Assembly: GCF_056746865.1 (NCBI RefSeq)
Contig: NZ_CM163382.1
Direction: 5' to 3' (one strand)
Length of the DNA: 64,000 nucleotides
Both the position numbers and the translations under genes were made by a program. Positions 3,431 to 64,000 of this stretch are shown piece after piece. The first letter of the stretch is position 1. The number at the start of each line of letters is the position of its first letter. The notes beneath the pieces were generated by a model. That model ran no database searches, had not been told where the DNA came from, and saw nothing but the letters and a program-made list of their open reading frames with translations.

Positions 3431-3741
3431 GGTAGTGCTTCCAATCAGTAGAACATGTTCTTTTCAATGACGGAACCGATGACTTTTTCGTTGATTTTCA
3501 CGGAACGCGAGAAGCAGATTGTTTTACGTGCCAGCCGCTTGATGCGGGTGCGGAGGGGCAGGTTGTTAAGTTCAATAGGTTGCGTGAATATTTTACCGGT
3601 CAGGTATTTCTCCTTCGTCACTTCTCTGACGTTGCAGCCCCTGTCATTGCTGGTCACTATGCCGATATAGAACGAAGTCAACAGGGCTAACAGTTCCCGA
3701 CAGGTCTCATCATTCCGTGGCCCGAAAGAATAAGCCAACAC
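3431..3741 (-). pseudogene. IS1-family element right end with divergent InsB-like C-terminal fragment
   Basis: ORF 3445-3741 C-terminus parallels IS1 InsB (RLARKTICFSRSVKINEKVIGSVIE vs [26 protein letters not shown]); terminal sequence ggtagtgcttccaatcagtag at 3431 resembles the IS1 inverted repeat; 5' part absent. Confidence 0.45.
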
Positions 3742-4083
3742 ACCGCAGTTTTAGTGTTGTAAGCAGACCAGTGTTGTTGCGCCTTGCTGCCAACGAAATT
3801 TAACTGCTCATCAAGTTTCAAAGATAAGGGCAACATCAGCGTGAACGACTGGCGTAGATGTTATCCGCCGGGGCGAAAACATTTTTAATGTCCGTATGAC
3901 GGTATTGATGCCGATTTTCAGTGTTCATGGGTATCACGGACACCTGCGCCGTTATGTGCCATTTCAACGATCTGCTCCTTAACGCCGGGTTTCCTGACTT
4001 CACCAAGAGTAAGTGAGCTGGAAAACATGTTTTACATGAGCGACAACGGAAACGCTCATCTCGGGAACGTGTTCTTAACGGTT

Positions 4084-4170
4084 AGACTGGCCCCCCTGAA
4101 TCACCTGCAGTTGAAGGACAGTAACAGGTTAAGTGATAACAGATGTCTGGAAATATAGAGGTAAATCCAA
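4084..4170. mobile_element. Miniature IS2 remnant: IS2 left and right terminal repeats with almost all internal sequence deleted
   Basis: tagactggcccccctgaatcacc matches IS2 left end; gttaagtgataacagatgtctggaaatatagaggtaaatcca matches IS2 right end; only about 20 bp between them. Confidence 0.55.
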
Positions 4171-4435
4171 GGAAGTGCCACTTTTCATCCGTTGTTGACA
4201 ATACAGCAAAACTTGATGCTATTCGTACGCCCACAATGGAATGTGGATTCAAACTGAATATTCCGTTTGTTGATATGAGTGATTTGGGCAACGGTGGCAA
4301 CAAATAACTTTATACAGGAGCTGACGGTGTTTTCCTGATCATGCCGCCCATATTTTCTTCGGAGGTCGGGGACTTTCAATACCTTCCCCCGACACTCTAT
4401 GACTTCACAAGATTGTCTCCATGACTGCTATGTGC

Positions 4436-8140: not shown

Positions 8141-9287
8141 ATGAAGGGTAAAATTGTCTGCTGTGGAGCCTCTCAGATTTCCGGCATCATAGTGCCCAAT
8201 ACGGGATGCAAAAGCGCCCTCAGACTGGCGACTCCACAAATGAAATATACACCGGTTGGCGTTGATATCGCAAAGTATCTGATTCAGGTTCACTTCATCA
8301 ATGAGTACACGGGCGAAGTGGTGGACAAGCAGCTACGTAGCAAGGATTTTCTGACGTTCTTCAGCAACCGGGAACCCTGTCTGATAGGTATGGAGGCTTG
8401 TGGAGGCTCCCAACATTGGGCGAGGGAACTGGAAAAAACTGGGACACAAAGTTCGGCTGTTGCAAGCTCGCTTCGTTAAAGCATTCGTCATGGGCAACAA
8501 AAATGATGTGATGGATGCGCGTGCTATCTGGATGGCGGTACAGCAGCCCAGTAAAGATATCGCTGTTAAAACGGAAGAGAAGCAGTCAGTTCTGGTCCTG
8601 CACCGTTCGCGCAGACAACTGGTGAAGTTCAGAACCTCGCATATTAATACCCTTGGCACGCTCCTCGAGTTTGGTGAAATCCTCCACAAAGATTGGACAG
8701 CGATGGACAGAAAGCTACCGACAGCCCTAGAGCGAATGAAGACGAACCTGCCGCCGTATCTCATCACTGTGCTTGAATACCAGTACAACAGACTGAGTGA
8801 GCTGGGCATGCAGATAGATGGCCTTGATAAACAGATTAACAGCGTGGCACGGCAGAGCGAAAACTGTAAGCGCCTAATGGAAATCCCCGGTGTGGGGCCG
8901 TTAATCGCTACGGCGGTGGTCGCCACCATGGGCGAGGCCTCAGCATTTAAATCCGGACGTGAGTTTGACGCTTATGTCTGTCTGGTGCCGAAGCAGACGG
9001 GGTCCGCTGGGAAGGTTCGCATGCTGGGGATAAGCAAACGTGGGGATACCTACCACCGGACATTATTTATCCATGGGGCAAGGGCGGCAGCATTGCTTAC
9101 CAAAGAACCCGGCCCATGGATCACGGAGCTGAAAAAACGGCAGCCGACAGGTGTAATGCCGATCAGTTTAGGAGCAGTTGACCGATCCAGGGTCTGTTTA
9201 AGAATCCTGAAACGCTCACTCGTTTCCGGATTTTTGTGCACAGAAAAACCCCAGCTAGGCTGGGGGCCGGAAAGCTTTCAGCTTTGA
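8141..9287 (+). pseudogene. IS110-family transposase, frameshifted
   Basis: ORFs 8141-8479 and 8400-9287 overlap in different frames; N-terminal GVDIAK/MEACG and C-terminal IPGVGP/GISKRG motifs. Confidence 0.6.
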
Positions 9288-9325
9288 GCCAGTTATTAAA
9301 ACCCCTTTTGATTTGTTAAAACACC

Positions 9326-9616
9326 TTGCGGTCTGGCAACTGCAAGTGTCAAACAAGAAATCAAAAGGGGGTCCCAATGGGGAACGAAAAGAGCTTAGCG
9401 CATACCCGATGGAACTGTAAATATCACATAGTTTTTGCGCCAAAATACCGAAGAAAAGTGTTCTACAGAGAGAAGCGTAAAGCAACAGGCAGTATTTTGA
9501 GAAAGCTGTGTGAGTGGAAAAGTGTACGGATTCTTGAAGCTGAGTGCTGTGCAGATCATATCCATATGCTTGTGGAGATCCCGCCCAAAATGAGCGTATC
9601 CGGCTTTATGGGATAG
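9326..9616 (+). pseudogene. IS200-family TnpA, 3'-truncated
   Basis: MGNEKSLAHTRWNCKYHIVFAPKYRR...HIHMLVEIPPKMSVSGFMG matches IS200 TnpA; left-end hairpin cccttttgatttgtt/aacaagaaatcaaaaggggg upstream; ORF cut short at 9616. Confidence 0.65.
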
Positions 9617-13777: not shown

Positions 13778-14116
13778 TAATTACACTGTGGGTTGACGCC
13801 GGAAGAATCAGAGAACAGATACCGTTCTTACTGTAAAACGTGGCTAATATTAATTGAGCACTGCAGTGTTCAGAGCACAAAGAAGAAAAAAGATGTGTGC
13901 GAATGCCTGTAATGTGTTAAAAGAATGTTCCGCGTTTCCGGTACGCTTTTCGTAACTAACAATGCAGGGTGACGTAACGCTGGTTGTGCCGGAAACGCGT
14001 CCCTCCCCCTATCTTTCCTGTTTGGATTTGCCCCTATATTTCTGGATTATCCGACAAAACCGGCGTGAAGTATTACTCTCGTCGCCCAGCACCATAAGGA
14101 TAACGCCCATAAAATC

Positions 14117-14482
14117 ATGAAACTTTTCTTCCAGATTGGATACAATCAGGCCGTATCCCGTATTACAGGCTTATCACGTGTGACAGTCAGTCTCTGGGTG
14201 TGTTCAGGAACATTCCCTGAAATGTCAACCCGGCCTCCAGAGCGAGGACTTCTGGCCCCATGGAGGGAGTGGTTAAAAGAGCAACGAGAAAGTGGTAACT
14301 TCGGCGCGTGGCTGCAAGGATGGCAGCTGATGCTGCGGCTATATGTGAGGCAATCGGCAGTCGCTGGAATAATGGGGGTTGTCGAAAGTCATGTAAATAG
14401 ACTAAAAATGCTGAAAGGCCAGATGTATGGTCGAGCCGGATTTGAACTACTCAGACAGAGGGTCATGAGTCCACTGGCATGA
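14117..14482 (+). CDS. Hypothetical protein with possible AlpA-like helix-turn-helix
   Basis: 121-aa ORF containing ITGLSRVTVSLW...FPE; weak resemblance only. Confidence 0.2.
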   Translation: MKLFFQIGYNQAVSRITGLSRVTVSLWVCSGTFPEMSTRPPERGLLAPWREWLKEQRESGNFGAWLQGWQLMLRLYVRQSAVAGIMGVVESHVNRLKMLKGQMYGRAGFELLRQRVMSPLA

Positions 14483-14690
14483 AAATCTCCATCCAGGTTG
14501 CGTAAGAGCCACTTTTCATCCGTCGTCGATATCTGGGATAGCCATAGTGAAATAAAAAGCTGTCTGAATTAAATTATTTTGCACATATATTTTAATCCTG
14601 CACTGAATTAAGAATGGGTAATCAGTGACTGCTTGGACGGTCACTTTTAAGAGAAGGCATTAACAGAGAATGGTAAACAGGCTCAATATA

Positions 14691-15143: not shown

Positions 15144-15317
15144 AACTCCTCCTGATCAGCCTGAAACTTTTTTAAAGTTTAATCATATTAATACAGTGCA
15201 ACTATTTGATAGTAAAAACGATGTTCTCTATTTTGTTAATAGATACTTCCTATTGTGTATATATTATGAGATTATTAAGAATAATACTCTCTGGGTCGTA
15301 GAGACAGGGTATAAGTC

Positions 15318-15760
15318 ACAGGCTGGTGTGGTTCGGATGTTCTTGCCCCCTCAATATCAGACTGCTATTGTATCTTAAGTTAACGTTATCCGCTGACGTC
15401 GATATTCCCGTGGTGAGAGATAACCTAACGCACTATGCGGATGGTTTTCATTGTAATGCTCGAACGCCTCTGCAAGGTTATGCAATGCCGTTATTACATT
15501 CAGTTTCGGCATGAACGCGATGTAGTCTTCATTCACGTTTTCACGAACCTTTCTGCCATTCTATTGCTCTGAGGGCTACTGACTGCCGTCGTGCAGGGCT
15601 CCAGATTCAACTCTCTGGCGAATTGCCGTGTTTCATGAGCCGTATAAGCCGAACCGTTATCCGTCCGCCACTGGATTGCTCGTTCCGGTCCTTTATCGCC
15701 AAAGCGTTTTTCTATCGCTCCTAACATCACATCCTGCACTGTCGGCTTTATCGTAACCTC
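15318..15760 (-). pseudogene. IS2-like (IS3 family) orfB C-terminal fragment with right inverted repeat
   Basis: [15 protein letters not shown]...[19 protein letters not shown]...[26 protein letters not shown] parallels IS2 OrfB; in-frame stop; terminal repeat ttaagatacaatagcagtctgatattgagggggcaag is IS2-IRR-like. Confidence 0.5.
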
Positions 15761-31079: not shown

Positions 31080-31825
31080 TGAGTGCATTTCGTACAGTTA
31101 ACCGCAAAAGGAGGGGGTACTCCATTCCATGAACTGGAAGCCCAGATACGATGCATAGAGTCACCTGATATTAAAAAGAACGAGGATCTTGAGGACGAGA
31201 ACCGACGTCCAAAACAGATGCTTGCCGACCTTAGCCTAGAGAACCGGCATTGAAAGACATTATCGAAAAAAGCTTTAAAACCAGCCTGTAAGCGTGAGCT
31301 TGTTACTCATCAGATAACGACATTTGGACTCAGTGTCCATCAGGCCTGCCGGAGTCTGAACCAGAGCAGAACGGTTTCCCATTACCGTCCGGATACCACG
31401 TGGTACGACCCCGTTATTGTGGTGGTGCAGGCAGTGGACGAGCGATATCCTCGATACGGTTTTTCAAAACTTTTTCAGGTTCTGAGGCAGCAGGTTCGCG
31501 GCAAATCGCAGTTATCCGGTCATGCTGCGCATAGATAATGGTTCGGAATTTATCTCTCTAACGCTGGCTGAATGGGCTGATATACACGCAGTAAAACGGG
31601 AGTTTATCCAGCCGGGTAAGCTGACGTAGAACGCTTTTATTGGGCGTTTTAACAGGACACACCGTACAGAAATACTCGATTTTTATCTGTTCAGAACGCT
31701 GAATGAAGTTCTAGAAATTACGGAGAAATGGTTATCAGAATATAGCTATGAACGCACACATGAATCACTGAACAATAAGACGCTGGAAGAATATCGACGA
31801 CACCATTATTTGACCAAGATATAAA
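31080..31825 (+). pseudogene. IS3-family transposase remnant, heavily degenerate
   Basis: OrfA C-terminus (ENRRPKQMLADLSLEN) and orfB C-terminus (ERFNRTHRTEILD...ERTHESLNNKTLEEY) recognisable between many stops. Confidence 0.4.
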
Positions 31826-63922: not shown

Positions 63923-64000
63923 TGGATTTGCCCCTATATTTCCAGACATCTGTTATCACTTAACCCATTACTGGTCCGCTGCCGCAGATATTCCCGTGGC
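63923..64000 (-). mobile_element. IS2 right end, element continues beyond the window
   Basis: tggatttgcccctatatttccagacatctgttatcacttaacccattac is the reverse complement of the IS2 right terminus and orfB 3' end. Confidence 0.65.

Follow-up and report, generated by a model that had tools for sequence, protein, structure and literature searches.

One element in the 64,000-nucleotide stretch of DNA analysed here (the window) consists of the two ends of IS2 and almost nothing else. A sequence-only reading had left two possibilities for its nature: it could be the scar of an internal deletion, or a non-autonomous, MITE-like derivative that IS2 transposase could mobilise in trans. Here we address this question through the anatomy of the element, the distribution and flanks of its copies and the recombinant alleles in which it occurs. 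Taken as a whole, the comparisons favor the view, to which we assign a probability of roughly 0.85, that the element is an inert and decaying relic of a single IS2-family insertion.

Anatomy of the element and its deletion junction

Alignment to the canonical 1331-bp IS2, which was taken from an annotated E. coli locus (L009), places the 87-bp mini-element at positions 4083-4169 on the plus strand (Table 1). The sequence-only reading had thus recognised the element correctly, and its coordinates (4084-4170) were one base too high. The left end matches IS2 nt 1-22 in 22 of 23 positions in the window copy and in 22 of 22 in a second version (L003, described below), while the last 49 nt agree with IS2 nt 1283-1331 in 45 positions (blastn E = 2e-14). 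The ends are ordered IRL to IRR, as in normal IS2. Of the two terminal repeats that had been described as present and correctly oriented, the orientation holds and the IRR is complete, but the IRL is not: the inner ~20 nt of its 42 bp are gone, and residues 23-42 are absent. Both mismatches of the IRR, at tip positions 8 and 11, fall inside the 11-bp cleavage domain. The spacer of about 20 bp between the ends turned out to be a stretch of ~23 nt that consists of diverged IS2 subterminal sequence rather than of foreign DNA. Because this stretch is only ~70% identical to IS2, the parent was probably a relative of IS2, or the relic is old.

A chance resemblance to IS2 was considered and can be ruled out, since two occurrences of the 32-nt IRR core were counted in the window where 0.00 would be expected, in addition to the blastn match and the collinear end alignments. 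By homology, the element therefore belongs to IS2-derived sequence, showing significant similarity to the IS2 termini in collinear order. Compared with IS2 itself, a 1331-bp member of the IS2 group of the IS3 family in E. coli, the relic retains the left 22 nt and the right ~65 nt in their normal relative orientation, but it lacks about 1,245 bp, comprising orfA, orfB, the frameshift site, the promoter and OrfA operator region, and IRL residues 23-42, and it also lacks a target duplication. No orfA-orfB transposase with a programmed -1 frameshift is encoded in the 87 bp, where the coding sequence is gone. Hence none of the features of an autonomous IS2 (genes, complete ends, target duplication) is present.

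The deletion junction lies at the left edge of the subterminal stretch. It joins IS2 nt ~21/22 to nt ~1267/1268, is the same in all versions found and reads ...GAATC(T/A)CC directly followed by TGC..., with a microhomology of 1-2 nt. The junction adjoins an imperfect direct repeat (GAATCTC at nt 15-21 and GAATATC at nt 1261-1267). This context fits a deletion by illegitimate recombination or slippage, with local divergence blocking an exact call.

The 5-bp target duplication expected of an IS2 insertion is missing from the window copy, which has ACGGT on the left and AGGAA on the right, and it is equally absent from all four versions (ACGGT/AGGAA, GCGGT/AGGAA, GCGCT/GTCAC and GCGCT/CCGAT). The data contain no empty-site allele; in the only yebF-paralogue loci that are free of the relic, homology ends about 90 nt upstream of the site. 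Neither the site of the original insertion nor its duplication can therefore be recovered. A vestigial duplication might be seen in AGCGG to the left and AGG to the right, compared with the uninterrupted GCGGAAGAGCC of ISEc38, although this resemblance is weak and not demonstrable.

Table 1. Coordinates of the relic, its flanks and related insertion-sequence fragments in the window
Feature	Coordinates	Strand	Evidence or remark
IS1-family transposase pseudogene fragment	3445..4057	-	RefSeq annotation; Pfam DDE_Tnp_IS1, E = 1.6e-36; translation
Shared left flank	4061..4082	+	Common to the window, L003, L015 and L016 types
Whole IS2-family relic (IS2 minus about nt 22-1266)	4083..4169	+	Alignments to 1331-bp IS2; blastn of IS2 against the window
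Outer half of IRL (IS2 nt 1-22)	4083..4105	+	Alignment; extra C in the C-run, T20A
Diverged IS2 subterminal stretch (about nt 1267-1290)	4106..4128	+	Roughly 70% identical; alignments to IS2 and to the IS2 at the window end
Complete 41-bp IRR	4129..4169	+	39/41; alignment; domain definition from PMC3299598
Right flank common with L003 (AGG plus the outer 28 nt of an ISEc38-like, ISL3-family repeat)	4170..4200	+	Ends ...GTTGACA
Solitary IS2 IRR tip (20 nt)	14023..14042	-	20/20; abuts the truncated ISEc38-like element
ISEc38-like ISL3-family 3' fragment	14043..14530	+	Repeat tip at 14504-14530 is a second copy of the relic-flanking sequence
ISEc48-like relic (IS2 group, IS3 family)	15333..15672	-	Position 15314 beside it is the right-hand endpoint of the L015 deletion
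IS2 right end (IRR plus 37 nt, body off the window)	63923..64000	-	75/78 to IS2 nt 1254-1331

Versions of the relic and their shared flanks

In a census of 5,426 complete E. coli genomes, a full-length version of the relic was found in 61, with at most three copies per genome and five flank contexts overall. The window type, in which the relic stands between the IS1 fragment and the sit genes, is present in 51 genomes with 100% identity. The L003 type (86 bp, 90.8% identical, about 18 genomes) is bordered by a yebF-paralogue pseudogene on one side and by an IS3-family remnant, an AbgT transporter and an S6 peptidase on the other. The L016 type occurs in 28 genomes downstream of a yebF paralogue, near an island integrase; its identity is 84% across 109 aligned nt, 22 of which belong to the shared left flank, and it lies 33-57 kb from the window-type copy in the genomes checked. 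The L015 type, known from two genomes, resembles L016 but has a different right flank, and the fifth context is a hybrid locus in strain GF43 (L019, 3930-4180). The versions differ from each other by 9-16% (84-91% identity). A search for further copies carrying 5-bp duplications had been proposed as a check. Copies do exist, at 84-91% identity and with shared flanks, while the duplications do not.

Beyond the E. coli chromosomes, no full-length relic was detected on plasmids in PLSDB, and the plasmid search returned IS2 right ends only. A scan of one genome per species gave 0 matches both for IS2-left and IS2-right motifs spaced 10-40 nt apart and for a 27-nt lineage-specific motif; these searches outside E. 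coli used exact patterns, which diverged copies would escape. When metagenomes were scanned with the 27-nt motif, five contigs were obtained, all of them window or L003 loci. Separately, plasmid p1 of strain W224N (L005, 4001-4054) carries a lone IS2-like right end that is 83% identical to that of the relic. It is located just downstream of iutA on a plasmid that also encodes iucC and iucD, in a different context and with no left end.

The left flank is common to all versions and reads ...GGGAAC(G/A)TGTTCTTA(A/G)CG(G/C)T. The flanks of the relic read ...GTTCTTAGCGG on the left and AAGAGCCACTTTT... on the right. Homology between the window and L003 covers 4061-4200, of which 31 bp lie to the right of the relic. 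For comparison we used both ends of an intact ISEc38 and of an ISL3 copy on a ColV plasmid, which end in ...GCGGAAGAGCCACTTTT.......GT.GACA at the tip. In the segment 4173-4200 (AAGTGCCACTTTTCATCCGTTGTTGACA), the match to ISEc38-type terminal repeats covers their outer part as far as the tip of the element, with the same TGACA, and the homology to L003 stops exactly at this tip. A 20-nt motif of the ISL3 tip is found again at 14504-14523, against 0.02 occurrences expected. Because the right flank corresponds to the tip of an ISL3-type repeat, the IS2 relic appears to be nested in the relic of another IS, sitting 28-31 bp inside, or directly against, its terminal repeat.

The other side of this presumed host is less clear. 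The 22 nt of the left flank may represent the diverged inner part of the same ISL3-type terminal repeat; this is only suggestive, as 4061-4082 aligns weakly with the inner ISEc38 repeat (...GTT....GCGG against ...GGTTGCGG) and the rest is not recognisably ISL3. ISEc38, the inferred host of the ISL3 family, resembles the flanking DNA in the outer part of its repeat, with an identical tip, but convincing similarity to ISL3 is confined to the tip, the left 22 nt show no clear homology and an attached transposase gene is absent.

Two other assignments were considered and rejected. An ISL3-derived MITE corresponding to the 140-bp unit would need a counterpart upstream, where just a 10-nt resemblance (TGTCA..AACG) and no 8-bp duplication is present. 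The IS1-family fragment is a neighbour of the relic and not its host: IS1 homology ends at 4057, in the InsA zinc-finger region, the shared DNA begins at 4061 and the right side is ISL3-type. The 5' side of this fragment, encoding the N-terminus, is missing, cut where the shared flank begins.

Taken together, the same junction, the shared flanks, the absence of a duplication and the divergence of 9-16% argue for one inherited relic and not for independent insertions. The copies are accordingly best read, from their sequences, as a single old relic that was inherited and reshuffled, and not as a mobile family. A plausible course of events would begin with an IS2-type element that inserted in or beside an ISEc38-like ISL3 terminal repeat, about 28-31 bp from the tip. 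An illegitimate internal deletion would then have taken about nt 22-1266, including orfA, orfB and the inner half of the IRL, and the remaining 86-87 bp would have been carried along passively with genomic-island DNA while the versions diverged by 9-16%.

Recombination at the relic and alternative explanations

Several alleles record exchanges at or within the relic. The GF43 locus is of the L003 type up to the C-run of the relic and of the window type from there onward, which places the crossover within about 12 nt inside the left end; this exchange joins the yebF-paralogue island to sitDCBA. The L015 and L016 types show no difference along about 150 nt of flank and relic, and the four positions that distinguish them all fall within the final 28 nt of the IRR. 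There, L015 matches the IRR of an IS2 variant (L008) exactly. The right flanks of the two types diverge exactly at the last IRR base, with a constant left flank, and the right flank of L015 starts at the equivalent of window position 15314, 10.5 kb further on when the DG351-2 genome, which has the L016 arrangement, serves as the yardstick. In strain XH992 (L006), a hybrid of the two ISL3-tip copies of the window is located beside sitD. The evidence points to homologous recombination at the relic as the source of the differing flanks. In particular, the rewritten IRR tip of L015 suggests recombination with a full IS2 at the distal site, because cleavage by transposase at the relic's own tip would not rewrite that tip. 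The only demonstrable activity of the relic is passive, in that it provides a homology patch of 50-140 bp at which islands or resident IS2 copies recombined, exchanging the DNA on one side.

The possibility that the relic is a non-autonomous MITE moved in trans by IS2 transposase has several points in its favor: both ends are IS2-derived and correctly oriented, the IRR is complete, more than one genomic context exists and full IS2 copies are found in the same genomes. One of these is represented by the end at 63923, which was confirmed as IS2 nt 1331-1254 on the minus strand over 63923-64000 with 75 of 78 positions identical, and which is inverted relative to the relic's IRR. Yet the left flank is the same in all contexts and the right flank in two of them, a target duplication is absent throughout, and the versions are 9-16% diverged instead of near-identical. 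No genome has more than three copies, and the plasmids and the scans of other species yielded none. Many copies at unrelated sites with their own duplications, as would be expected of a MITE, are thus not observed, and neither is a pair of repeats with binding and cleavage determinants. According to Lewis et al. (Mob DNA 2012, PMC3299598), residues 12-19 of the IS2 IRL matter for recognition, an anchoring sequence lies within residues 20-42, and minicircle formation is lost when a single base is deleted at position 14, 26 or 29. The relic has lost IRL residues 23-42, the C-run of the window copy contains an inserted base, and 2-4 substitutions are found in the IRR cleavage domain of the window and L003 copies, those in the window copy being at positions 8 and 11. 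Because of these three defects, transposition is not expected: judged by the published mutagenesis of full-length IS2, the relic would be unable to form a synaptic complex or a circle, should stay in place even when IS2 transposase is provided in trans and is almost certainly immobile. The MITE-like derivative of the sequence-only reading, contradicted by few, diverged and flank-sharing copies and by the truncated IRL, is largely refuted and in our view very improbable, whereas the internal-deletion scar proposed beside it is borne out by a single shared junction, a single shared left flank and the lack of a target duplication in every version.

A comparison with known bacterial MITEs leads in the same direction. 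Like them, the relic is short (87 bp), non-coding and left with both IS ends after an internal deletion. It differs in having half an IRL in place of a functional repeat pair, and in lacking target duplications, amplification and a hairpin-type fold; moreover, all of its copies share flanks, which implies descent or recombination and not transposition. Among the matches listed in a literature search, no title or abstract describes an IS2-derived MITE. The element can therefore serve as a clean negative example: two close and correctly oriented IS ends indicate a MITE only when they are combined with independent flanks and target duplications.

A relic that is immobile as a unit could nonetheless retain an IRR that works as a one-ended donor for IS2 transposase, with the changes of the right flank explained by adjacent deletions or inversions. 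In step I of IS2 transposition only the IRR acts as donor end and only the IRL as recipient end (PMC3299598), the right flanks of L015 and L016 change exactly at the last IRR base with the left flank constant, and L015 can be described as a 10.5-kb deletion starting at the tip. This is countered by the last 28 nt of the L015 IRR, which are replaced by an IS2-variant sequence, with four clustered differences against none in the preceding ~150 nt, by the mutations in the IRR cleavage domain and by the requirement for a bound IRL that normally applies to synapsis, so that we regard this explanation as unlikely. Its stronger form, in which an intact IRR is still recognised by the transposase of resident IS2 copies and has repeatedly caused adjacent deletions and rearrangements as a one-ended donor, is decidedly unlikely. 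If it were true, the 87-bp scar would repeatedly drive mosaicism in the aerobactin/sit island, beyond its part as a passive homology patch. It is extremely improbable that the relic spread as a passenger in the terminal repeat of a mobile ISL3-family element, with the 140-bp unit marking separate ISL3 insertions. Such a passenger would account for the window/L003 homology ending on the right exactly at the ISL3-type tip, and the length of the unit (a repeat of about 50 bp plus 87 bp) suits one interrupted terminal repeat, but no ISL3 transposase adjoins it in any version. Its left neighbours are instead the IS1 fragment in the window and yebF-downstream DNA in L003, L015 and L016; the ISL3 tip is wholly absent from L015 and L016, and the ISL3 end would probably not stay functional with 87 bp inserted 28 nt from its tip.

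A regulatory or RNA role for the relic was also examined and rejected. No Rfam family is found at the site, promoter-like and terminator-like matches remain at background level with no excess, and the predicted RNA fold is weaker than that of shuffled sequence (z = +1.84).

The relic in an IS-dense virulence island

The relic resides in the IS-dense aerobactin/sit virulence island. In the RefSeq annotation of an identical region, the gene order is iucD, iutA, an ISL3-family pseudogene, the IS1 fragment, the relic and sitDCBA, followed by IS110, IS200 and IS256 fragments. The relic itself falls into an unannotated gap, and the nearest gene is sitD, which is convergent and ends 266 bp away. The relic has been inherited along with this iron-uptake island of E. 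coli and is one of the IS remnants that are well known from mosaic islands. It shares with the IS remnants and solo IS ends of pathogenicity islands and ColV-type regions the location in an IS-dense mosaic, the lack of a RefSeq annotation and the function as a recombination patch. Its sole particularity is that both ends survive and are nested in the terminal repeat of another IS.

Internally deleted or truncated IS copies are commonplace in the pathogenicity islands of E. coli and carry little general biological weight. The relic and the ISL3 tip, however modest, mark joints that link the aerobactin/sit region to the yebF-paralogue island in about 1% of sequenced E. coli, mostly poultry-associated, and such joints can aid the reconstruction of how virulence islands were assembled. 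In addition, the site that is left blank in RefSeq could be labelled as an IS2 remnant.

Other fragments of related elements are scattered over the same region. The solitary IRR tip at 14023-14042 is fused directly to the body of the ISEc38-like ISL3 element and represents a second, still smaller IS2 scar. The two direct copies of the ISL3 tip, at 4173-4200 and within 14043-14530, are about 10 kb apart and bracket sitDCBA. The ISEc48-like relic (15314-15672, minus strand) is 74% identical to IS2 nt 995-1278. Positions 4201-4357, which separate the ISL3 tip from sitD, are about 75% similar to DNA beside a prophage tail-fibre assembly pseudogene in other E. coli (L007).

Further along the window, Rfam matches at gathering level were obtained for two Hfq-binding sRNAs, STnc490 at 9246-9367 on the plus strand (129 bits) and isrN at 31277-31419 on the minus strand (138 bits). 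A match to the catalytic domain of group II introns is located at 44886-44972 on the plus strand (64 bits), and an ltrA reverse transcriptase/maturase pseudogene is annotated in the same island of a related genome. Finally, the segment 56076-61771 contains mirror-image pairs of open reading frames (273 and 180 amino acids, on opposite strands) around open reading frames of 249 and 513 amino acids, and it looks like an IS that is inserted into another IS or flanked by inverted copies of it.
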